Virus record (IMG/VR): IMGVR_UViG_2695420380_000016
Direction: 5' to 3' (one strand)
DNA from: a virus
Lineage: Duplodnaviria > Heunggongvirae > Uroviricota > Caudoviricetes
DNA: 19,685 nt
This document shows positions 6,649-19,685 of the stretch, one piece after another. The notes under the pieces were generated by a model. It saw only the letters and a program-made list of their open reading frames with translations. It was not told the DNA's origin and made no database searches. The first letter of the stretch is position 1. Each line of letters starts with the position of its first letter. The position numbers and the translations under genes were made by a program.

Positions 6649-7139
6649 TAAGCCCCCACGTAATTCCCTGACAGATACCACTCTTCACCCGATGCAGCGC
6701 GCTTGCTGCTTTTCCGTAAGCACCGCTCACGATGCGCCAGAAAATTGTTTCGTTCTGGCTGGGAGTGGCTTTCACGGAATGCCGCCATCCACACCGTTGC
6801 AGCACGACGGTATAAGCCCCTGGACTCCAGTTCTTCCGCCTGGCGGGTCAACAAAATCACCCGGGGATCGTTAGTGCCGACATAGAAATTGCGCACAGGT
6901 CTGGTTTCACGAACTGGTTGTGGTTCCGGCTCCTGCGCTCTCTCAGTCAGGCGCGGGAAATGTCTGCGTGTATCTACTTCACAACGGTGAGCCACACGCC
7001 CGCTCTGACGTAACTTGCTTGCTGACTGTAGAACGCGCTGCCGTGAGTAACCTGCAAAAGCATCCGCAATGTCTCCGGAAGTACACCCCGGATGGGCTTC
7101 AATGAATTTCTGAACGTCATTCAAAAGACTCATGCTCAC
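6648..7139 (-). CDS. hypothetical protein; C-terminal half weakly resembles PerC/ANR-type regulators
   Basis: 163-aa ORF, translationally coupled on both sides. Motif LLTRQAEELESRGLYRRAATVWMAAF is the basis for the tentative PerC/ANR resemblance. Occupies the slot where a helicase loader would sit in lambda. Confidence 0.5.
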   Translation of the reverse strand: MSMSLLNDVQKFIEAHPGCTSGDIADAFAGYSRQRVLQSASKLRQSGRVAHRCEVDTRRHFPRLTERAQEPEPQPVRETRPVRNFYVGTNDPRVILLTRQAEELESRGLYRRAATVWMAAFRESHSQPERNNFLAHRERCLRKSSKRAASGEEWYLSGNYVGA

Positions 7140-8077
7140 CCCCTGAATCCTGCCGGGATCTGGCTGTAGTCCACATTGTCGTAACTGGCTTTGAAGTACG
7201 GGTCTTCGCGTTTTTCTGTGTACGTGCTGATGGACGGCGATAAGCGCAGGGAAAGCTCATCCCATTTTTCCCGCAGCTTCGACGGGCTGAGCACGTTACG
7301 GCACCAGAACGGATCGCGGCTGATGCGGCTGTACATCTCGCAGATTTGTTTGTGAGTACGACCATCCTGCACACACATCAGGCGAATTTCGTTTGCCCAG
7401 GCTGTCCAGTTCGGTTCTTTGGGACGAACCACCTCGCCGTCACATTCGGCGGCCTGCTCGTACAGGGCGATGATTTTTTTCCAGAGCCACTGTGCGCAGG
7501 TCAAATCATCCTGCGTTCCCCACTGGCACTTTTTAGGGCTGAATACAACCGCATCAGGATGGCGAGTTAAAAAATCCTGTTCAGCCGTCTGCGTGTCCGG
7601 TTGCGAAACGTCCGGACGAGAAGGTTTTTTATCTGACGGATCATATTTTGATTTTACTGACGGATCCCCGCCAGATTCTGACGGGTGAAAACCCGCTTTT
7701 TTGCCAGATTTCGACGCATCAAATTTTGACGGGTCAGATTTTGATGCGTCAGATTTTGACGGGTCAGAATCTGACAGTTGAGAAAATGCCGCGGCCTGAA
7801 GCTTCGCAACGTTAAGCTGATAAACATTCGACGCATTACGGTTACCCTGGCGACGCGCCTTACGCGTTAACCAGCCTTCTGCTTCCAGCCGTGCAATAGC
7901 CGTTCTGACGGTACTCATCCCCGCGCCAATCTGGCGGGCAATGGTTTCAATCGATGGCCAGCACACACCTTCGTCATTACTGAAATCAGCCAGGCGGGCC
8001 ATAATTGCCACACTGGATAATTTCATGCCTGACGCTGCGCAACCATCCCATACATAGCCGGTTAATTTAGTGCTCAT
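7136..8077 (-). CDS. replication initiator / replisome organiser, O-like (N-terminal winged HTH, repeat linker, C-terminal domain)
   Basis: 313 aa. N-terminus has an HTH (SIETIARQIGAGMSTVRTAIARLEAEGWLTRK). The central linker SDSDPSKSDASKSDPSKFDASKSG is encoded by direct DNA repeats, as in lambda O where ori iterons lie inside the gene. SD AGAGG upstream of the ATG at 8077. Confidence 0.65.
   Translation of the reverse strand: MSTKLTGYVWDGCAASGMKLSSVAIMARLADFSNDEGVCWPSIETIARQIGAGMSTVRTAIARLEAEGWLTRKARRQGNRNASNVYQLNVAKLQAAAFSQLSDSDPSKSDASKSDPSKFDASKSGKKAGFHPSESGGDPSVKSKYDPSDKKPSRPDVSQPDTQTAEQDFLTRHPDAVVFSPKKCQWGTQDDLTCAQWLWKKIIALYEQAAECDGEVVRPKEPNWTAWANEIRLMCVQDGRTHKQICEMYSRISRDPFWCRNVLSPSKLREKWDELSLRLSPSISTYTEKREDPYFKASYDNVDYSQIPAGFRG
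7630..7780. repeat. iteron-like direct repeats (candidate ori) inside the O-like gene
   Basis: About eight imperfect copies of a TGACGG(A/G)TC core (ctgacggatc, actgacggatc, tctgacgggtg, ttcgacgcatc, tttgacgggtc, ttgatgcgtc, tttgacgggtc, tctgacag). The last four are spaced 15 bp apart. AT-rich stretches flank them. Confidence 0.5.
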
Positions 8078-8425: not shown

Positions 8426-9036
8426 GCGTTAGTTTCTCCACAACCAGAAGCAATCGACGCCACGACGCCCGGAGCTGCACACTCGCGGGCGTCATTACTT
8501 TCTGAAACGCAAAAAATTTTGTAGACAAGTGCTGCATGCTCCTGCAGCTTCGAAATTGAGAGGTACAGCTCGTCGTTAATTGCTGTCTTCTCATGCGGTT
8601 CCACTACACCGTCTTCGATTGCCGAACGAATCTGTTTTGAATAACTGCCGATCTGTTCAATGACTTCCAGTAAACGCTGGTTAATATCGGCATTGTCCAC
8701 ATCCTCGACGTCAGGAAGAGACACAAAGACGCCATTTGCAGACTGCGCCACAGCGTCAGCAATGAAGTGAGTGCCACCAGCACGTTGTAAAATCATTGCC
8801 CATCCCAGCGGGAAAATCTGATCGCCATCGGCACGAAGGCGGTTAAATAATGCGTTCTCTGTTACATCCAGCCAGTCAGCTGCTTCAGCGTAACCACCCG
8901 GCAACGCTGCGATAGTTTTTCTGACAGCTTTCACGTACCACTCAGGCTGTTTTTCTACTTTCCAGTGATACTTACCCACGGTTAGCCTCATCGTTCTGTG
9001 GTTTCTGTTAATCGATTTATCCATTAGATTTTTCAT
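8422..9036 (-). CDS. CII-like / CP76-type phage regulatory protein (start uncertain)
   Basis: Positioned immediately after the cro-like gene. Length and position fit lambdoid CII-like/CP76 regulators. Track ORF extends to 9093, overlapping cro by 76 nt; internal Met codons at 9036 and 9024 are more plausible starts. None has a clear SD. Confidence 0.5.
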
Positions 9037-9217
9037 AAAGCTCAGGTTTAAATGGCAACCGTCCGCAAGTTCTATATGCTGCTTCTGCTGCACGTCCTTT
9101 TGGAATTAACTGGCCCGGACGGTTTCGCCACTGATAAACGGCCTCAGTTGTTATGCCGAAAAAAGCAGCAACTTTCTCAATACTGCCGAAGTAGCTTTCG
9201 ATATCGTCAGTTGTCAT
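9017..9217 (-). CDS. Cro-like repressor, DicC type
   Basis: 66 aa: ...[56 protein letters not shown] resembles remembered DicC (YFGS..KLAQAAGI....Y.W......P.GRA). Divergent from the repressor gene. SD GGAGGG upstream. Confidence 0.7.
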   Translation of the reverse strand: MTTDDIESYFGSIEKVAAFFGITTEAVYQWRNRPGQLIPKGRAAEAAYRTCGRLPFKPELYEKSNG

Positions 9218-9315
9218 ACGCCCTCCAAAACTAAGTTTTATTAGATGTTAATTATCAATCTATCTTAGGTCAATAAAAACTAAGATTACTTAGTAATTTA
9301 AGAAATGGTGCTCCT
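9218..9315. promoter_or_regulatory. immunity-region operator/promoter (OR-like; divergent cro-like and cI promoters)
   Basis: 98-bp AT-rich divergent intergenic region. Contains palindrome AAAAC-TAA-GTTTT (9227-9239) and inverted repeat CTAAG-ATTA-CTTAG (9279-9292). Candidate cro promoter on the minus strand: TTGACC-N17-TAACAT. Confidence 0.6.
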
Positions 9316-9942
9316 ATGGAAACGGTTGGTCAGCGTATAAAAGCTCTGAGAAGGGTTACCAGAACGTCCCAGAAAGAATTGGGTAAATTTTGTGGGGTAA
9401 GTGACGTTGCTGTGGGGTACTGGGAAAAAGACATCAATGTCCCTGGCGGGGAAGCACTTTCGAAATTAGCGAAGTTCTTTAATACGTCAATAGATTACAT
9501 TCTTTATGGTGCTGAGTTTGAAGGCAAACTAGTCACAAACATGCGCAGAGTTCCTGTAATTTCGTGGGTTCAGGCTGGGCAGTTTACTGAGTGCAGGGCA
9601 GCAGAAGTGTTTAGTGAAGTGGACAAGTGGGTAGATACATCTTTAAAGATTGGTGATAACTCATTTGCATTAGAAGTTAAAGGCGACTCCATGACTAATC
9701 CTAATGGCCTCCCAACAATACCAGAAGGTGCAACAGTGATTGTAGATCCTGATGCAGAACCTCGTCATGGAAAAATAGTCATTGCTCGACTTGATGGAAC
9801 GAACGAAGCTACAGTAAAAAAATTAGTCATCGATGGTCCTCAAAAGTTTTTAGTGCCATTAAATCCACGGTATCCCAACATCCCAATCAATGGTAATTGC
9901 CTGATCATTGGTGTAGTCAAAGGAGTTCAATACGAACTCTAG
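9316..9942 (+). CDS. CI-type prophage repressor (HTH_XRE N-terminus, S24 LexA-like peptidase C-terminus)
   Basis: 208 aa. N-terminal HTH (QKELGKFCGVSDVAVGYWEKD). Ala-Gly autocleavage site (VQAGQF). Catalytic Ser in GDSM and Lys in TVKKLV, as in lambda CI and LexA. Confidence 0.9.
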   Translation: METVGQRIKALRRVTRTSQKELGKFCGVSDVAVGYWEKDINVPGGEALSKLAKFFNTSIDYILYGAEFEGKLVTNMRRVPVISWVQAGQFTECRAAEVFSEVDKWVDTSLKIGDNSFALEVKGDSMTNPNGLPTIPEGATVIVDPDAEPRHGKIVIARLDGTNEATVKKLVIDGPQKFLVPLNPRYPNIPINGNCLIIGVVKGVQYEL

Positions 9943-9964
9943 TACCTCCCTTCTCTAACCAAGG

Positions 9965-9997
9965 CACCAAACTAAGAAAAGTTTGGTGTTTCCTCTT
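9965..9997 (+). terminator. hairpin downstream of cI (candidate terminator; also carries the operator-like motif)
   Basis: CACCAAAC-taagaaaa-GTTTGGTG followed by TTTCCTCTT. The 8-bp stem contains AAACTAAG. Confidence 0.4.
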
Positions 9998-10105
9998 GCC
10001 TTAAAAACTAAGTTAAGTTAGATTTAATATCAAAGATAACGAACAGGCAGGACGCCCACAAAGTAGCCTCCTGGGGCAAATGAAGTCCAGGATGATTCGT
10101 TAGCA

Positions 10106-10131
10106 ACAAAAAAGCGCCCTATAGGACGCTT
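10106..10131 (-). terminator. intrinsic terminator for the minus-strand 173-aa gene
   Basis: Minus strand reads GCGTCCTATAGGGCGC followed by TTTTTTGTTGC: 6-bp stem with one G-U pair and a U6 tract, about 42 nt after the stop at 10173. Confidence 0.55.
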
Positions 10132-10172
10132 CGATCTTTAACAATCTGGGTATCATCCAACCAATGCAAGAT

Positions 10173-10694
10173 TTAAGGAATCCAAGGCGAATTCAGATCT
10201 CGCCCCGACTCACGTAATGATCTTGGTCGTTCGTACATCGGATTTTTTTCCATAAGAAATTTATTTTCACAGTGAAGGCAACGGCTTGTAAGAAAATGAG
10301 AAGTTTTACCTACTGGAAGCGGATGAAGTATCGATTTTATATTTTTGGAATAACAAAGTGGGCACAGATGCACAGTTATTTCTTTTCCACTCACAATTTC
10401 ATTTTTAGAGTAAACAAAAGCACCAGAGTCAAGCTGATCAAGGACATATCCTTCTACCTTGGCACAAAAATCTTCAAACTCTGCAATTTTTGCTTTGAGA
10501 TGCATCACCTCTTCATCACGAAGGCGGATCGCATCGCCAAGAGAGAAGCATTCTGCCTGAAGCGTGATTAGTTTGTTCTGGAGTTCAATGGTTGCAGCTT
10601 TAACTTCTGCATCCGTTTTCGCGTCATTAATAACCTTAGCAAGACCGGCAGTCTCCTTTATAGCAGCCATAGCCGCAGACAGTTCAGCTATCAC
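10173..10694 (-). CDS. hypothetical coiled-coil / zinc-ribbon protein (moron between cI and the early operon)
   Basis: 173-aa ORF on the strand opposite to both neighbours. Markedly AT-rich compared with flanks (by eye). N-terminal heptad-like helix (ATIELQNKLITLQAECFSLGDAIRLRDEEVMHLKAKIAEFEDF). C-terminal CPLC...CLHC. Own terminator. Start is GTG at 10694 with no clear SD; ATG 10673 is an alternative. Confidence 0.55.
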   Translation of the reverse strand: MIAELSAAMAAIKETAGLAKVINDAKTDAEVKAATIELQNKLITLQAECFSLGDAIRLRDEEVMHLKAKIAEFEDFCAKVEGYVLDQLDSGAFVYSKNEIVSGKEITVHLCPLCYSKNIKSILHPLPVGKTSHFLTSRCLHCENKFLMEKNPMYERPRSLRESGRDLNSPWIP

Positions 10695-10981
10695 GTTGAA
10701 TACTCAGCTAGTTGTTGGGGGTATCCAGATTAACCAAATCCTTGTTGTTGGGGAATAACCAGGTCCACCTCGCCTGATGTGGCTAAAAGCAGGCACATAA
10801 CAGCTAAGTATTTTCAACCAGAGAGAATCCTTAGCGTTGTGGTGAATGCGGCTCAGCGCACGCGGGTTAAGGTTGAGGCTGACAGTCGACCTTCTGTGGA
10901 TACCCACCCGTCTGGTGTACAACCTTCGCCAGGCACCGGGAGGCACCCGGCACCACAACTTTATGCTGTGTGTAGTCTTGG

Positions 10982-13082: not shown

Positions 13083-13435
13083 ATGTTTTCGAAATGGAAG
13101 GGTTTCTTCGCGGGAAATGTGTACCGCGAGATCTGAAAGTGAACGAAACAAATGCTGAGTACCTGGTACGTAAATTCGACGCGCTTGAAGCTAAATGTGC
13201 GGCACTGGAAAACAAAATAATACCAGTGTCAGCTGAACTGCCACCAGCAAATGAAAGTGTTCTGTTATTTGATGCTAACGGAGAAGGCTGGCTGATTGGC
13301 TGGCGTTCTCTCTGGTACACCTGGGGACAAAAAGAAACCGGAGAATGGCAGTGGACATTTCAGGTCGGGGACCTTGAAAACTTCAATATCACTCACTGGG
13401 CAGTAATGCCCAAAGCGCCGGAGGCTGGAGCATAA
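13073..13435 (+). CDS. DUF551-like protein (YfdS-like)
   Basis: C-terminal ITHWAVMPKAPE resembles the DUF551 signature. Possible starts at 13073 or 13079; the latter overlaps the upstream stop as ATGA. Confidence 0.6.
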   Translation: MRMNVFEMEGFLRGKCVPRDLKVNETNAEYLVRKFDALEAKCAALENKIIPVSAELPPANESVLLFDANGEGWLIGWRSLWYTWGQKETGEWQWTFQVGDLENFNITHWAVMPKAPEAGA

Positions 13436-14055
13436 TGACCACATTTACCAATAAAGAACTGATTAAAGAAATCAAAGAACGAATCAGCAGCCTAGAGGTT
13501 CGAGACGATATTGAGCGCCGTGCTTATGAAATTGCTCTGGCATCGCTGGAAGAGGAGCCGGTGGCATGGCTGCATTCAGACAATGGCTTAGGTATTCCGG
13601 CAATAACCAGGAGCAAAAACATTGCTGACAGTTGGTTATCAATGGGCTGGTATGTTCAGCCGCTATATATAGCCAAGCCAGTACTGGTGGTGCCAGATGC
13701 TCGTCCGTCTTTAAATAATGGCATAGTCGGTTTTGATGAAGGCTGGAACGCCTGCCGCGCCACCATGCTTCATGGTGCCAAACCTGTAAGTCAGACTTAC
13801 AAGTTGAACAAGCTGTCGGGCAACTCTCCGGTAACTCAGGATGGTTGGATAAGCTGTAGTGAGCGAATGCCGAACGATAAACAGTATGTTTGGTGTTGGG
13901 GTAAGTCTTACGGCTGGACTGAGTGCGATACCTTCGAAGGGTATTACGATTGGTCGAGAAACAAATGGTGGGCAGTTACTGACGATGGGGAAGAACCGGC
14001 ATCGAAAGTAACCCACTGGATGCCGCTACCGGAGCCACCGCAGGAGGTGAAGTAA
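13435..14055 (+). CDS. DUF551-domain protein (206 aa)
   Basis: C-terminus ...GWISCSERMPND...VTHWMPLPEPP is the typical DUF551 ending. TAATG overlap with the upstream gene. Confidence 0.65.
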   Translation: MTTFTNKELIKEIKERISSLEVRDDIERRAYEIALASLEEEPVAWLHSDNGLGIPAITRSKNIADSWLSMGWYVQPLYIAKPVLVVPDARPSLNNGIVGFDEGWNACRATMLHGAKPVSQTYKLNKLSGNSPVTQDGWISCSERMPNDKQYVWCWGKSYGWTECDTFEGYYDWSRNKWWAVTDDGEEPASKVTHWMPLPEPPQEVK

Positions 14056-14249
14056 TGAACAACTTAATGACAACTAAACAAGTCGCCGACTTCTGTGGCG
14101 TTTCAGTATCGACCGTTCTTCGCTGGAACAGCGTAAACAGGAGAACTGGCCAGAAATACAGGCCTGACTTTCCAGATCCTGATATTAAATCCTGCCCAAA
14201 TAAATGGGCATCACGCAAGATATACAGGTTTGCTGGAGTTATTGAGTGA
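14055..14249 (+). CDS. AlpA/Xis-family excisionase-like HTH protein
   Basis: 64 aa: TTKQVADFCGVSVSTVLRW...PDFPDPDIK...WASRKIYRFAG has the pattern of AlpA-type excisionases (HTH then FPKP...W). SD AGGAGG upstream. Last gene of the coupled plus-strand operon. Confidence 0.6.
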   Translation: MNNLMTTKQVADFCGVSVSTVLRWNSVNRRTGQKYRPDFPDPDIKSCPNKWASRKIYRFAGVIE

Positions 14250-14284
14250 TGGGTATTAGCTCATATCAGAACTAATACCCATCA
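14247..14284. repeat. perfect 13-bp inverted repeat (hairpin) at the operon end
   Basis: TGATGGGTATTAG (14247-14259), 12-nt loop, CTAATACCCATCA (14272-14284). No U-tract on either strand. A second inverted repeat GACACAG...CTGTGTC lies at 14287-14315. Confidence 0.5.
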
Positions 14285-14451
14285 ATGACACAGAGCCAAC
14301 TACCCACCCTGTGTCAGGGGCTAACTTTTAACACCATAATTCACCGCTAGATAAAAACTGTATTGCATTGCACGAGCGGCGCAGCATTATCAGTTAGAGT
14401 GTCTTTACCTTGTTAGGCTCCACAGTTCGCACTGTCCAACGCCTGTCACTT

Positions 14452-17400
14452 TCACACGCTGCGCCTTCGAGAATATTCATTTAATCGCTGATAACGAACA
14501 TCTTGCTCCAGTTGTGGAGCAGCTTGAACAATTTGAAGCAAGCATTGCCCCAACTCTCGAGGCCCCCAGTGTTGTTCGGCAATCACGGCATTCAGCAGGG
14601 ATAGAGCGTCCGCAGGATATCGGCTGCAAATATCTGATTCTAGCAAAAGGCGAACGTCGTAGCTAAGGTGTTCGAGCGGTTGCAGCCAGTCCTGCACCAC
14701 TGCCAAAGCCGCCGGAAATTCACCTCGGGCAGCAATCACCATACGAGTCAACGATTCGGATATGCGTGGGGTGGCCAAGTTGCGGGACTTTGGCCAAACC
14801 TGTTGCCAAAATGGCTGGACACGATTTTTCCAATACTCCTCGCGCTGATCGCCCGCACCTTCAAGTGCCTGGTATAACGCCTGCGCGGCTACCTCCAGAC
14901 CTTCTTGTGGAAGAGCACTAATTGCCGTTCGGAACTCCTCCACGGTATATCCCTCGGTAGGGCCCAGAGCTGCATAAGTCAGGAAAGTAGCGAATTGCTG
15001 CCGGTGCTCGCCAAGATCAGAATAGTGATTGGCGCTCTCCAAAAAATCTGACTTGAAAGCTATCAGCAACGGTTCATACAGGCGTGGCGACCAGAGGAAG
15101 CCTTCCCACACAGCTTTTGCTTCGACGGGATTACTCCAAGCAAACAAGGGCAATAGATACTGTTCGGTCCAAGGTCGATCTACGCGAAAAAATGCGATCA
15201 GCCGCGACCCCAGCAACACCCGACCATGGCGGAATAGCTCTATCTGTACATTACACAATTTGGTGAAAAGTGTTTTCAATTCAACAGGAAGCAAATCATT
15301 GTCATTCGGGTTCTGTTTGAACCATAGGGTGATCAGTGATTGCGTGACATGCCCAATGGGATGATTGATCGCCGTAGAAACAGGATCATAGGTCTCAATT
15401 CCGTTTCGAATGGTGCTAGACTCTGGGCTTGTTTCTATCATCAGAACCCGACGACAAAGGGCCAGTAGAATCTCCTCGTGGCAGAGGATGGTCTTCGAAG
15501 CCTCCTCCATCCACCAAGTGACAGCGTGGGAAATCTCCTGAAGTACTGCGTCAGGCATGTCAAGCACCAACGGTGCGGCGTACCGCCACGAACGCAAAAT
15601 CATCCCTGGTTCAGCCCAAGTCTGCAGAGCTTCACGCCACCGACCAACAGGCCACACATCATCTTGTGATAGTTTACTTAACGCATACAGACTGTGAAAA
15701 AAGCGCGTACGGCAAACATCACTCCAAGTGTCCTCATAGAAAGGCAGTCTTTCTGGCATAGGCTTTGCGAGCCATTGCACTAATTCCTGCCACTTACGGG
15801 GCGCAATGTCGACATCTATACTCTCCTCGAAGCCTGGATCACCGGTTCCGCTCATCCAGTGAGAGAATTCATCACGCTCGTTGGTTGCCAGTTGCCATTT
15901 TGGGTATGCTGTGGATATTTCCGTCAAACGTGTAGCCGCAGACTCTCCCAAAACAAGGCCCGCTCCCCTGAGCTTCGCTAGACACAACCAGACGGAATGA
16001 GCCACCAAATAATGCCACCTGTCTGCTTCCAAATTATCCTCGTACATCTCGCGCGGAGGCCCTGCCAAGATAGCAGTTTCCAGACGCTCTTGTGCAATTC
16101 CTGTCAGATGTCGTCCCTGCAAAACAAACAGTCTGAATACCTCTCGCCTAGTATCCGTGGCCCACAACCACCATGAACCGTCCTCTAACAACCAATTAAC
16201 CCACCGCTCAGGTGGTATGCAGTTGTCTTGGCTTGCGGCAAACAGTGCCAGACGTTTGAAGGTGGGATATGGCAACTCAAACCAATTCTGAGCAATGCGC
16301 GTGGCCTGATCGCTGTCTTTGGATCGAACGGCTAACCATGAATCCCGAAGTAATTCAATCAGGCTCACCCAATCGCGGAACCCCCGGTTCTGCCAGTGCG
16401 GAGTGATGGACGGCAAATCCCAATGCGAGCGGTCGTGACGATCGTCGGACTCTCCCAACTCCCGCAACAAGTCCAGTGCATCACGCAACAACTGCTGAAA
16501 ATCTTCCAACAGGTATGGCAAGGACGATTTCCATGACTCGTCAGCAAGGTCGAACAGGGTTGAACGTACGTAATCAGCAGTCAGCACCAGCTCCCAATCC
16601 ACCAATTGCTTGATTCGCAAGGGTTCATCAGTGCTGCTCGAATCGTCTTCACTATAGCGAAACGGCCGCCTCAACATAACCTTGGGAGAAAGCAACTCGC
16701 GTAACTCCAAGCGCAATGTAGTCGTCAAGCCTTCATTCTTTAAGCGGTTTTGCCAACGATACAAATCCAGGTTCTGCAATGGCGATTTCACACGACCACT
16801 AAGCAGAAGCCGCCATAAAGTAGACATAGGTGGACCAGGAATAGCCAGGGGGGAATGCAAGAGAATTTCATCTAACTCAGAAGTCTTACGCTCCCGCATC
16901 AGTGCTGCTAAGCGATCTAGTTCGCTCTCAATCAGAAACATCCAACGGTCGTGTATTTGTCCGCCGCGTTCAGCAATCCATATGATCAACCTAGGGTCGC
17001 CCAGATAACGAACTAGCCAACGGGCTATATGGGACATTACGTCATCCCATTTGCTAGCACTGACACATCCAGAAACCAGCGACATCTGCGGGGCCAGCTC
17101 ATAGGGCGCAGGACGCTGAACCAGACTGAATCGGAGTTTCGGGTCAATTTCGACATGCGGAGATACACAAAAGCGTGGCAGATCGCTGTATTTAAATCGT
17201 TCGTCCGAGAAAGCTTTCAATAACCAATCCAGCGGCGGTGCAGGATTGAGTTCCGCAAAGCGTTTTGCTGGTAAACCTGATTTATCTGACAAGGCCCACA
17301 ACATCCGACCAACGAAATCGTCCTGACGAGTGCTGTCCTGCGGGCGGGCCAGAGCATGTTTGACGACTATAGCCTCTTTGCCCTGTATACCATCTCGATA

Positions 17401-18279
17401 AGTATCTGCCCAAGCGTGCAACGTTTGATGCAGCACTGAATGATCAGTGGAGCCCGCCGGTACGGTGTAAAGGATAGGAGTGACCCCTTTGGCCTCCCAC
17501 TCGATGGCTTTCCGGTGCTCCTGCCCCGGCTCACACTCCCCCAGTGCCCATACTTGTGGTGTGACTTCACCGAGCCTCCGATCTGCTGCAAGCGCATCCA
17601 TCATGTAGCGCAGTACCGGGTCGTTGATGCTGTAGCCAACGAAGCAGACCACATAGTTACGAAATAACTCACTCACAAAGCGAGCTGCCCAACGCTCAGT
17701 GAGATAAGCCAAGCCAAAGTCACCGCTGGTAACAACCAGACGATTCAGGGCAGTATCATCCGCCTTTTCCGGTAACAGCCCATGCAGGTATACAAGTCCA
17801 TCCCAGCGGCTGTTTTTTGGAATTGGCAGCATCGGCGCTACATAGGCCTGAAAAGCCTGGCCTGTACGTTTAGCTGCCACATGAAAGAGACGGTCAAAGT
17901 TGGTAGTGACCAATCGAAGGGCACCCTCGCGGCTACGGGCTAAACGTAACAGCGCCGCCTGAGTATCAATAGCGCCCCTACGACGGAGCTTTGGCTTAAG
18001 GGCTTTTTCCAACGCGCGTCGGACGGCTATACGCTGCCCTGGTAAGCGCCGTTCCAGCAAATCTAATGTGCCGTCAAATTGCCCACGCTCGAAAACCTCA
18101 CGCTCAATTTCTGAAAGTGTTGTTCCGTTCCTCTGGTAAATTAGTTCTACCAACCCTTTGAAACCAGGTAAACCAGCAGGGTAGGAAATGCCTGCTCCAC
18201 AGAAGAACACAACGCGCCCTTCCTCGTGCGCCTGCAAAAGCTCATCAGGAATATCAGGGCCGTTGGTAATGAATTGCAT
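14452..18279 (-). CDS. SIR2-like domain fused to a large helical C-terminal domain (1275 aa); candidate DSR-like antiphage NADase
   Basis: N-terminus carries SIR2_2-type motifs in order: VVFFCGAGISYPAGLPGFKGL (glycine-rich NAD loop), VTTNFDRLFH (catalytic Asn), VYLHGLL (catalytic His about 40 residues later), FVGYSINDPVL. The remaining 950 or so residues are helical and Trp/Leu-rich with no Walker A motif. Strong RBS GGAGGAAAAGGA before the ATG at 18279. Candidate -10 TATAAT on the minus strand at 18342-18347. Confidence 0.8.
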   Translation of the reverse strand: MQFITNGPDIPDELLQAHEEGRVVFFCGAGISYPAGLPGFKGLVELIYQRNGTTLSEIEREVFERGQFDGTLDLLERRLPGQRIAVRRALEKALKPKLRRRGAIDTQAALLRLARSREGALRLVTTNFDRLFHVAAKRTGQAFQAYVAPMLPIPKNSRWDGLVYLHGLLPEKADDTALNRLVVTSGDFGLAYLTERWAARFVSELFRNYVVCFVGYSINDPVLRYMMDALAADRRLGEVTPQVWALGECEPGQEHRKAIEWEAKGVTPILYTVPAGSTDHSVLHQTLHAWADTYRDGIQGKEAIVVKHALARPQDSTRQDDFVGRMLWALSDKSGLPAKRFAELNPAPPLDWLLKAFSDERFKYSDLPRFCVSPHVEIDPKLRFSLVQRPAPYELAPQMSLVSGCVSASKWDDVMSHIARWLVRYLGDPRLIIWIAERGGQIHDRWMFLIESELDRLAALMRERKTSELDEILLHSPLAIPGPPMSTLWRLLLSGRVKSPLQNLDLYRWQNRLKNEGLTTTLRLELRELLSPKVMLRRPFRYSEDDSSSTDEPLRIKQLVDWELVLTADYVRSTLFDLADESWKSSLPYLLEDFQQLLRDALDLLRELGESDDRHDRSHWDLPSITPHWQNRGFRDWVSLIELLRDSWLAVRSKDSDQATRIAQNWFELPYPTFKRLALFAASQDNCIPPERWVNWLLEDGSWWLWATDTRREVFRLFVLQGRHLTGIAQERLETAILAGPPREMYEDNLEADRWHYLVAHSVWLCLAKLRGAGLVLGESAATRLTEISTAYPKWQLATNERDEFSHWMSGTGDPGFEESIDVDIAPRKWQELVQWLAKPMPERLPFYEDTWSDVCRTRFFHSLYALSKLSQDDVWPVGRWREALQTWAEPGMILRSWRYAAPLVLDMPDAVLQEISHAVTWWMEEASKTILCHEEILLALCRRVLMIETSPESSTIRNGIETYDPVSTAINHPIGHVTQSLITLWFKQNPNDNDLLPVELKTLFTKLCNVQIELFRHGRVLLGSRLIAFFRVDRPWTEQYLLPLFAWSNPVEAKAVWEGFLWSPRLYEPLLIAFKSDFLESANHYSDLGEHRQQFATFLTYAALGPTEGYTVEEFRTAISALPQEGLEVAAQALYQALEGAGDQREEYWKNRVQPFWQQVWPKSRNLATPRISESLTRMVIAARGEFPAALAVVQDWLQPLEHLSYDVRLLLESDICSRYPADALSLLNAVIAEQHWGPRELGQCLLQIVQAAPQLEQDVRYQRLNEYSRRRSV

Positions 18280-18461
18280 TCCTTTTCCTCCTATCCAATG
18301 TGCACGTTCATTCGAGTAAATGAAGGCAAGGGGTTACATCTTATTATACCGACCGTGCAAATCCGGCTTCCTAGCAAGCTACTTTACTTGCCAACTCATA
18401 ATGTCCGAACTCCGAACAAAGCGGACTGCTAGATTTGATTGCGTTCTAGCTACGCAAAATA

Positions 18462-19685
18462 TCATTTCGAGCCTGAACGAGTACAAGTAACAATCGATTC
18501 AACTCTCTCCCACCATGCCTGGTAGGCTTTACGCTGTTCTTCTAGATAATCACTCTTGTCATAAACTTGCCATACACCTGGCAGTTTATGACCGAGCATT
18601 ATTTCAGCAATATGAGGCGCAGTAAGATCAGAAAAGTTTGTTCGTGCTGTTCGTCTCAAATCATGAAGAGACCAATGAGGAAATTGATACCCCAAACGCC
18701 GCCATGCGTACTGCATTAAATTGTAAGGCAGCGACTGCAATGATGTCCGACCAACTGGTTCCCTGCTTCCTTCCTTAGTAAAAAGCATATCGGAACCGTT
18801 GTTCATAGAGATAACGTATTTTATAAGCTCTTCAACCGGTTCAATAATGGGCCGCTTTAGCGGTTCGCCTGTTATATCCCCTGTCTTATGTCGTTCTGGT
18901 GGTACAGTCCATATTTTATTAATGAAATCAAAATCGTCCACCTTGGCAGTAATTAGCTCTGAACTACGGCAACCAAAATGCAGCAATAGTTTAATGAAGG
19001 CCCGGTATTTAGGAACCATTCGAGAACCATCGATCGCAGCATAAAGGATTTTAATTTCATCATGTGTCAGAAACCGTTTCTTCTGACCTTTACGGATATC
19101 CATATCTTTACCCGTGATATCCGACAGCGGGCGAGTTTCAATGAGCTTTCTCTTATACGCCCAGACATGGGCCTGCTTTGCGTTAATTAGCAATCGGTCT
19201 GCTATTGCTGGAGTCTTAGTGCTAAGAGGCTCCAGGACTTCTAACCAATCATGCAATGTAGCTGCATCGTGAGGGATATTCCCGATTTTAGAGAACAGGT
19301 GCAGCTCAAACGAGCGGAGTATCTGTTCAGAACCTTTTTTATTTTTTACACAATATGCTTCATACCAAGCACGGATCACAGATTCTACCGTCATGGCTTC
19401 AGTAGCTTTACGTTTTTCTGCCAGCTTGACCAATCGTGGATTGCGGTTTGACTCGAGTTCACCACGAAGACGGATAACTTCTTCTCTGGCCTCTTTTAGT
19501 CCAGTTGCCGGGTAAGTTCCGATATCAAGACGCTCACCTTTCCCCGCCCACTGATAACGATATTGGAACACTACGCGACCTTTCGGTGATACTCTAACAG
19601 ACAGACCATCACGATCGGATTTAACCAAAACCTTATCACGTTCCTTTCCAACAACTGAACGCAACCACGCATCAGACAGCGCCAT
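18462..19685 (-). CDS. tyrosine integrase, P4-like (DUF4102 arm-binding N-terminus plus catalytic domain)
   Basis: 407 aa. N-terminus MALSDAWLRSVVGKERDKVLVKSDRDGLSVRVSPKGRVVFQYRYQWAGKGERLDIGTYP fits the P4-family arm-binding pattern. C-terminus has catalytic-domain motifs (HDLRRTARTN..., GHKLPGVWQVYD with the Tyr). The ATG is the last three bases of the window, so upstream signals and att are outside. Confidence 0.85.
   Translation of the reverse strand: MALSDAWLRSVVGKERDKVLVKSDRDGLSVRVSPKGRVVFQYRYQWAGKGERLDIGTYPATGLKEAREEVIRLRGELESNRNPRLVKLAEKRKATEAMTVESVIRAWYEAYCVKNKKGSEQILRSFELHLFSKIGNIPHDAATLHDWLEVLEPLSTKTPAIADRLLINAKQAHVWAYKRKLIETRPLSDITGKDMDIRKGQKKRFLTHDEIKILYAAIDGSRMVPKYRAFIKLLLHFGCRSSELITAKVDDFDFINKIWTVPPERHKTGDITGEPLKRPIIEPVEELIKYVISMNNGSDMLFTKEGSREPVGRTSLQSLPYNLMQYAWRRLGYQFPHWSLHDLRRTARTNFSDLTAPHIAEIMLGHKLPGVWQVYDKSDYLEEQRKAYQAWWERVESIVTCTRSGSK

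Follow-up and report, generated by a model that had tools for sequence, protein, structure and literature searches.

The window analysed here, 19,685 nucleotides (nt) of a Caudoviricetes virus (IMG/VR record IMGVR_UViG_2695420380_000016), reads as part of a lambdoid prophage in which an excisionase gene (xis) and an integrase gene (int) face one another across the segment 14250–18461. We consider it very probable that this segment is a cassette of one anti-phage gene, dsr1, lodged in a hypervariable, repeat-bounded slot of a single lambdoid prophage of ~49.5 kb in the 5' end of prfC. What was observed comprises the gene identities, a slot content that varies, one pair only of attachment (att) cores, and the homology of the boundary repeats. 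Based on sequence comparison, the left and right boundary inverted repeats (IR-L and IR-R) appear to belong to a repeat family that flanks Z/fun and other variable loci of P2-like phages. The features of the slot and its borders are as follows.

14055–14249, plus strand: xis, excisionase (recombination directionality factor) gene of 64 residues, last gene of the early operon
14247–14284: hairpin 1, arms TGATGGGTATTAG (14247–14259) and CTAATACCCATCA (14272–14284), 13 perfect pairs around a 12-nt loop, the stem running from the xis stop codon
14286–14316: hairpin 2, 8-bp stem of TGACACAG (14286–14293) and CTGTGTCA (14309–14316)
14251–14328, plus strand: IR-L, left boundary repeat of ~80 bp, holding hairpins 1 and 2
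14452–18279, minus strand: dsr1, defence-associated sirtuin of 1275 residues, SIR2 NADase domain at the N terminus and a long sensor region at the C terminus
18280–18390, minus strand: dsr1 leader, with the Shine-Dalgarno sequence AGGAGG (18287–18292) and a perfect TATAAT (18343–18348), a candidate promoter read from the sequence
18391–18460, minus strand: IR-R, right boundary repeat, inverted relative to IR-L, with TTGCGT...ACGCAA and GTCCG...CGGAC hairpins just past the int stop
18462–19685, minus strand: int, tyrosine integrase gene of 407 residues with a P4-like domain architecture, its ATG being the last codon of the window

Much of this layout had been noted in a preliminary description made from the sequence. 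The SIR2 gene and the integrase gene, 4.2 kb from xis on the opposite strand, are present as open reading frames (ORFs) as it described them, with 4212 bp between the xis and int stops. The perfect 13-bp hairpin and second inverted repeat that it reported at the boundary were both confirmed, at 14247–14316. Its suggestion that the prophage has a cargo slot with a defence insert is borne out by related phages, which share both flanks (~95–96% identity) and differ in the slot genes. Of its proposed checks, comparison of related strains over 14250–18461 gave 18 cargo clusters among 78 loci, and the GC content of the dsr1 segment (0.51, compared with 0.46–0.50 in the xis-side flank and 0.43–0.45 in int) does not mark the segment as foreign.

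Judged by its sequence, the large gene of the slot is dsr1, whose product is a known single-gene SIR2 NADase defence. The protein matched the NCBIfam Dsr1 equivalog NF041818 with 2060.5 bits, against a cut-off of 1400, over residues 1–1271, and the PADLOC Dsr1 model PDLC02183 with 2735.6 bits over positions 1–1275 of 1275; Pfam SIR2_2 was found at residues 123–269 (81 bits). The motifs GAGIS (residue 28), TTNFD (N127) and YLHG (H166) were intact, and from general knowledge of SIR2 enzymes these are the putative NAD-binding motif and catalytic Asn and His residues. The system consists of a single gene, as all other slot ORFs of at least 70 residues fall inside the dsr1 span, in other frames or on the opposite strand. 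A sequence search of the PDB returned no Dsr1 structure. The name dsr1 is already given by RefSeq in 72 of the 5426 complete E. coli genomes over which all our E. coli frequencies were counted, and the full xis-to-int context was likewise present in 72 of them.

In comparison with published DSR1 (Gao et al. 2020; Garb et al. 2022; PMC12803255), the window protein shares a full-length match above the equivalog cut-off, the SIR2 Asn/His motifs, the C-terminal sensor and the single-gene organization, and the sequences gave no sign of any difference. Infection leads DSR1 to deplete NAD+ (Garb et al., preprint 10.1101/2021.12.14.472415), and the trigger of E. coli Dsr1 is a phage major capsid protein, its repeat-rich sensor being common to Avs7 (PMC12803255).

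Homologues of Dsr1 from 45 other species were adjoined by this integrase gene in three cases and by this xis in none, which indicates that dsr1 moves between contexts. A second allele, of ~93% DNA and 94% protein identity, was seen in the same slot of two other loci (L057 and L069), accompanied by its own matching IR-L variant, and also among the E. coli hits H95–H98. Its occurrence in the same slot suggests that dsr1 may have been resident there for a long time. A diverged dsr1 allele has TCTAAT where the window has TATAAT, and a scan with consensus promoters and terminators gave counts that were not above those of shuffled sequences.

The variability of the slot can be seen in comparisons with phages cdtI and 2H10, which are 94–97% identical to the window from 10978 to ~14290 and from ~18440 to 19685. 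Homology to them breaks at 14288–14299 and 18438–18480, and between these points cdtI carries a gene of 710 residues and 2H10 one of 239 residues. A scan of IMG/VR with the window integrase identified 80 loci in which the integrase was at least 97% identical, and 78 of these were used for the census of cargo. Their slots, of 1.07–4.2 kb, held the 18 unrelated cargo clusters, nine on each strand, with a GC content of 0.31–0.43 in every cluster except dsr1 (0.51). The remaining two loci are deletion derivatives: L018 retains int but no more than the initial ~550 bp of dsr1, which is fused to phage DNA from a distant position, and L066 has lost xis. These deletions indicate that prophages at the prfC site also decay.

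By plain count, eight of the 18 cargo types matched defence-associated families of PADLOC or Pfam. These are Dsr1 in the window, Borvo in cdtI (PADLOC, 801 bits), and, by PADLOC/Pfam, a dGTPase (L059), a dCTP deaminase (L077), the PtuA-like PDC-M01A/B (L023), PDC-S59 (L024), an HNH nuclease (L019) and a DUF4365 nuclease-like protein (L026). One of the identified cargoes is a Septu-like system. The other ten types had no match in PADLOC, Pfam or NCBIfam (L025, L028, L034, L037, L039, L049, L051, L052, L070 and gp29 of 2H10), and several of them are multi-pass membrane proteins. One of these domain-less cargoes, the 517-residue multi-pass membrane protein of the L037 type, occupies the slot in the Shiga toxin (Stx) phages of type Stx1a and in most of those of type Stx2c that were examined; Stx2c_EH0430 has the dGTPase in its slot, and one Stx2c phage has dsr1. 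Overall, roughly one occupied slot in ten holds dsr1 (72 genomes with dsr1 and 698 with int).

The slot is thus a prophage defence hotspot in the sense in which the term is used for P2 and P4 (PMC9122126). It shares with those hotspots (PMC9122126; Vassallo et al. 2022) conserved flanking genes and a rapidly swapped, mostly low-GC, defence-rich cargo, and the P4 hotspot, between psu and int, also abuts an integrase gene. It differs from them in the type of element and in the att site, in not being next to cos, and in having both recombination genes as its flanks. Our search of the literature found no paper on this lambdoid xis–int slot.

The preliminary description had an AlpA-type gene end the plus-strand operon at 14249. 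The operon does end there, and the 64-residue protein is excisionase-like, matching PHROG 1553 (“excisionase”) over its full length with 122.5 bits. The AlpA assignment did not hold, as a Pfam search gave no match to AlpA (PF05930, Phage_AlpA) at E ≤ 0.01, and the best Pfam match was HTH_17 (HTH_17/MerR) with 22.6 bits, below the cut-off of 27. The homologous genes of cdtI and 2H10 are annotated as excisionases. The integrase has the Pfam domains Arm-DNA-bind_3 (PF13356, 58 bits), Phage_int_M (PF22022) and Phage_integrase (PF00589, 63 bits), also matches the PHROG 1 integrase, and by this architecture, a DUF4102-type N-terminal domain followed by a tyrosine recombinase domain, would be classed as P4-type. 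It was identified in 698 of the E. coli genomes (~13%).

The int gene points away from att and into the slot, convergent with the early operon, an arrangement found in 78 of the 80 related loci. In this orientation int is out of reach of the early leftward promoter, and its own promoter has to be on the side of att. In L001, a locus of the RefSeq genome NZ_CP104371, a promoter-like site (TTGAAA, a 17-nt spacer and TAAATT) is found 92–120 nt upstream of the int ATG. TGTACA and TTGTACA motifs lie on both sides of the att core (L001 13295–13352, minus strand; L084 36545–36670), and four TGTACA copies lie between the promoter-like site of L001 and the int ATG. These repeats are candidate arm-type integrase sites and could autoregulate int.

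An integrase gene with its own att-side promoter, uncoupled from the excisionase gene, is a described arrangement (Panis et al. 2010, PMC2951348), and we see in the orientation of int no sign of a foreign integrase. The lambda arrangement, in which int and xis are adjacent, co-directional and co-transcribed from pL, is not matched, as here the two genes are convergent and 4.2 kb apart. The orientation fits the KplE1/HK620-type module (IntS, TorI; PMC2951348), where it likewise bars promoter sharing between int and the excisionase gene; its integrase promoter overlaps att, and in the prophage studied here the putative promoter and the TGTACA repeats lie between att and the int ATG. However, in KplE1 the integrase and excisionase genes are at opposite ends of the prophage and the target is a tRNA gene, whereas here both are at the same, yjjG-proximal end, are convergent, and the target is prfC.

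In NZ_CP104371 the prophage is ~49.5 kb long, extends from int to a DinI-like gene, and lies between yjjG and prfC. A 20-bp att core, TTTGC(C/A)ATTATTTCTCACCC, is present at both junctions, inside prfC codons 17–23, and is a direct repeat of the kind that the preliminary description advised looking for. One copy is 231 bp past the int ATG, so that att is indeed just beyond the right edge of the window as had been predicted, and the other is at prfC; there was none elsewhere in the prophage or window. The tRNA or tmRNA 3' end that had been suggested as a feature to look for was not found: the core is inside prfC, and a search of the window for tRNA and tmRNA genes was negative. The prfC gene is kept intact by the phage, which supplies a substitute 5' end (L001 13287–13536; L084 36600–36750), and a 69-nt remnant of the original prfC start is left beside int. 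GenBank records of Stx phages annotate an insertion duplication at the same spot in prfC, which is a published Stx-phage integration site (PMC8065619). The prfC/yjjG position is also integration hotspot 35 of the E. coli defence-island map (Hochhauser et al. 2023, PMC10121019, supplementary file 2), listed for mobile elements carrying defence systems; that study maps the same chromosomal position, not the xis–int slot within the prophage or its repeats.

These data bear on whether int and dsr1 might instead form a separate small integrative island or satellite beside a prophage lacking an integrase, as the preliminary description had also suggested. P4-type integrases are often found in satellites and islands, and int and dsr1 are co-directional and both convergent with the phage early operon. 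We regard this possibility as extremely improbable and rejected it. The only two att cores enclose the whole ~49.5 kb, with none between xis and dsr1, and the annotation of the prophage includes no further tyrosine integrase. Three isolated phages, cdtI, Ayreon and 2H10, share this order of xis, slot and int, with the same int next to the same xis, and the circular record of cdtI shows, directly after int, the DinI-like gene with which the prophage terminates at prfC. In addition, int remains at least 97% identical while the cargo changes. The integrase and att therefore belong to the same prophage as the dsr1 slot.

The slot is bordered on its left by the two hairpins of IR-L. A perfect stem as long as that of hairpin 1, whose arms a repeat search gave as 14262-ended on the left (14247–14262) and 14269–14284 on the right, was not found among the other inverted repeats of the 17 listed for the window, and by our own estimate ~0.005 perfect 13-bp stems with a loop of up to 20 nt would be expected by chance in 19.7 kb. 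The RNA fold of 14240–14345 had an energy of −32 kcal/mol (z = −4.7), with none of 200 shuffles as stable. In an alignment across cargo types, ~85 nt after the xis stop could be aligned, hairpin 1 being variable in sequence and hairpin 2 having a consensus, GGCACAGAGC...GCTCTGTGCC, of which the window hairpin 2 is one version. The first ~50 nt past the int stop are conserved too. In the two hairpins 82% of cells were paired, compared with 28–47% when the partner was slid.

Profile searches with nhmmer identified repeats at both ends of the slot. IR-L was matched with E = 1.4e-9 by a profile that included window-type sequences. The match to IR-R was strong with the full profile (E = 2e-15) and with a P2-only profile (18458–18416, minus strand, E = 1.8e-8), and IR-R had ~73% identity, by eye, to the annotated “right inverted repeat” of P2-EC58. 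Pairwise local alignment of the two slot ends of each locus was significant in L026 only (window z = −0.8); the repeats are too diverged for such alignment and were revealed by the profiles and by GenBank annotation. Searches of Rfam with 13900–19685 and three canonical IR-L copies gave chance-level matches only.

Across the lambdoid set, 17 of the 18 cargo types had an IR-L next to xis that P2-only profiles recognized (E-values between 7e-7 and 3e-21), and 12 had an IR-R next to int; all matches of these profiles in the ~10-kb lambdoid loci were at slot boundaries. An exact search of IMG/VR for the hairpin 2 pattern returned 42 contigs, ~30 of which lack this xis and int. Most of these ~30 carry the whole module of ~90 nt, and most are P2-like phages. 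In the P2-like contigs the module is found behind one of three genes (tail gene S, portal gene Q, tail gene U) or in the vicinity of FI, with variable genes alongside, and convergent IR-L/IR-R pairs occur 1.2–3.8 kb apart; in one lambdoid contig it follows a late-regulator-like gene. The IR-L copies at these different variable loci are those of L164 (11742–11832); L134 and L170; L148, L149, L151, L155, L156 and L167; L137 and L160; and L146 and L162. The hairpins are thus part of a conserved repeat family and not a casual boundary feature.

The repeats of the P2 Z region were reportedly described by Nilsson, Karlsson and Haggard-Ljungquist in 2004. When phage records were searched by BLAST, IR-L matched P2 and its relatives, and in GenBank AJ512676-83 the matched sequence carries the label “left inverted repeat” for the P2 Z region, and a “right inverted repeat” is annotated across the cargo. 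P2-EC58 and P2-EC48 have the same layout, with IR-L on the plus and IR-R on the minus strand. The P2 Z/fun locus (AJ512676-83) is therefore alike in having homologous, convergent IR-L and IR-R around unrelated accessory genes of either orientation. It differs in that it is found in a P2-like phage with tail-gene flanks, whereas the window is lambdoid, has xis and int as flanks, and has a strongly diverged IR-L.

The family is not confined to phages, as an IR-L-like sequence was present in 2170 of the 5426 E. coli genomes, in 1–4 places each. Copies were seen in L178 (4000–4088, E. coli B, between nanQ and gltD) and in L179 (4001–4087). A strong one (E ~1e-22) adjoins the stop codon of nanQ in the core chromosome of E. 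coli B and others. The nanQ copy is followed by an ORF of 101 residues labelled “transposase” and then by a truncated DUF1016 gene; the 101-residue ORF had no Pfam domain and hence offers no recombinase lead. A further IR-L copy was seen in a RepL/H-NS element.

Related phages thus keep xis, IR-L, IR-R and int and differ in the cargo, which is unrelated and of either orientation. Based on these observations, we propose that recombination with its anchors within or close to the conserved flanks, xis with IR-L on one side and int with IR-R on the other, would exchange the cassettes. The hairpins may also act as outward-facing terminators or insulators. In the lysogen, dsr1 would be expressed from its own promoter and would protect the host and prophage against other phages. 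If the published findings on Dsr1 extend to this protein, the major capsid protein of an infecting phage would trigger its C-terminal sensor, with NAD+ being depleted and phage replication blocked as a result.

Several results weigh against parts of this proposal. The window IR-L is strongly diverged; a P2-only profile matched it only weakly (14253–14299, E = 0.012), and its place in the family rests mainly on its alignment with sister cargo types and on its position. Covariation in the two hairpins was not above that of shuffles, 91 of 500 of which reached the observed score, and we therefore do not claim selection on pairing. For 19 IR-L variants RNAalifold gave a weak consensus of −0.86 kcal/mol. 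A consensus sigma-70 scan found no −35/−10 pair upstream of dsr1, and read-through from int is a possible source of its transcript. In the lambdoid set, moreover, the IR-L variants and the last xis codons co-vary with the type of cargo, so that recent crossovers seem to have been outside the repeats, in the flanking genes.

That last observation is what would be expected if exchange is ordinary homologous recombination in the flanking genes, in which case IR-L and IR-R would be mere terminators or insulators carried along with the cargo and would play no part in mobility. We give this explanation serious weight, at somewhat less than an even chance. It is also favored by flanks that are ~95% identical over kilobases, by IR-L always being directly after the stop codon of a gene, and by a terminator-like stem with a T-run at 14307–14319. 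However, the hairpins are without the T-tails of classical intrinsic terminators, and in the P2 loci after gene S conservation stops at a fixed point just inside IR-L. The same sequence of ~90 bp also follows genes as unrelated as this xis, P2 S, portal Q, U, nanQ and the late-regulator-like gene, in unrelated phages and in the chromosome, and homologous recombination of the flanks cannot explain this pattern.

A role for the repeats could be either as shared anchors of homology and insulators, or as the ends of a cassette that is mobilized in trans. In the second case IR-L and IR-R would delimit a non-autonomous cassette, and a dedicated activity provided in trans, either site-specific or transposase-like, would move it, so that defence genes could shuttle between unrelated phages and the chromosome. 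The convergent inverted pairs around cargo at several different loci, and the wide occurrence of the repeats in E. coli genomes, are consistent with such movement, as is the 2004 proposal of site-specific exchange at the P2 Z/fun repeats as a review summarizes it (PMC8987985). In addition, the route by which defence genes are transferred between P2/P4 and other elements is stated to be unknown (2026 NAR, PMC13586616). We nevertheless consider this explanation rather unlikely. No recombinase was identified, the repeats are in our own reading unlike dif, and no cargo was common to the lambdoid slot and the sampled P2 loci. Among phage records the Borvo cassette was found only in cdtI-type phages (cdtI and Ayreon), and the recent lambdoid exchanges look like homologous recombination. 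Similarly doubtful, in our estimation, is the broader speculation that a widespread system of non-autonomous cassettes has IR-L and IR-R as its termini, and that a recombinase acting in trans, or else the short stretch of homology that the repeats provide, would move defence and other accessory genes between lambdoid phages, P2-like phages and chromosomal sites such as nanQ-gltD.

The interpretation that we favor, a dsr1 cassette in a repeat-bounded prophage slot, combines two known kinds of structure, the prophage defence hotspot and the repeat-bounded cassette, and its novelty is modest. The dsr1 gene itself is ordinary and already annotated, and the value lies in the slot. Among its cargoes, the ten domain-less ones, one of which is carried by the Stx1a phages and most of the Stx2c phages examined, are promising as possible new genes of defence or lysogenic conversion. 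Through the repeats, the lambdoid slot is connected with variable loci in P2-like phages, and this provides a testable handle on the movement of defence genes between unrelated elements. If the repeats do prove to be the termini of cassettes, they would supply the missing route for the shuttling of defence genes that recent P2/P4 work leaves unexplained, and searches with the repeat profile could find new defence genes, including the ten domain-less types.

The remainder of the window is in keeping with a lambdoid prophage. Its plus-strand operon is built of yfdP/Q/R/S-type genes, the 64-residue ORF being the last, and further genes of the early region are listed here.

9017–9217, minus strand: Cro-like gene
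9316–9942, plus strand: LexA-like CI repressor gene
13435–14055, plus strand: DUF551 gene, its stop codon overlapping the xis ATG

In NZ_CP104371 (L001 7036–7850, equivalent to window 13435–14249) the RefSeq annotation splits the DUF551 gene into two pseudogene fragments and leaves the 64-residue excisionase gene without annotation; both ORFs are intact in the window. The immunity region, 9003–10978, is wholly unlike those of cdtI and 2H10, a classical lambdoid mosaic. It contains an ORF of 173 residues (10173–10694, minus strand) with a GC content of ~0.39–0.41, pairs of CxxC motifs and no PADLOC match, and this site beside cI may be a second position for accessory genes. Overlapping inverted repeats, GACGCATCAAATTTTGAC and GTCAGATTTTGATGCGTC and their relatives, were also identified at 7713–7775, within a helix-turn-helix ORF of 313 residues (7136–8077, minus strand), and this cluster looks like the iterons of a replication origin inside an O-like gene, as in lambda.

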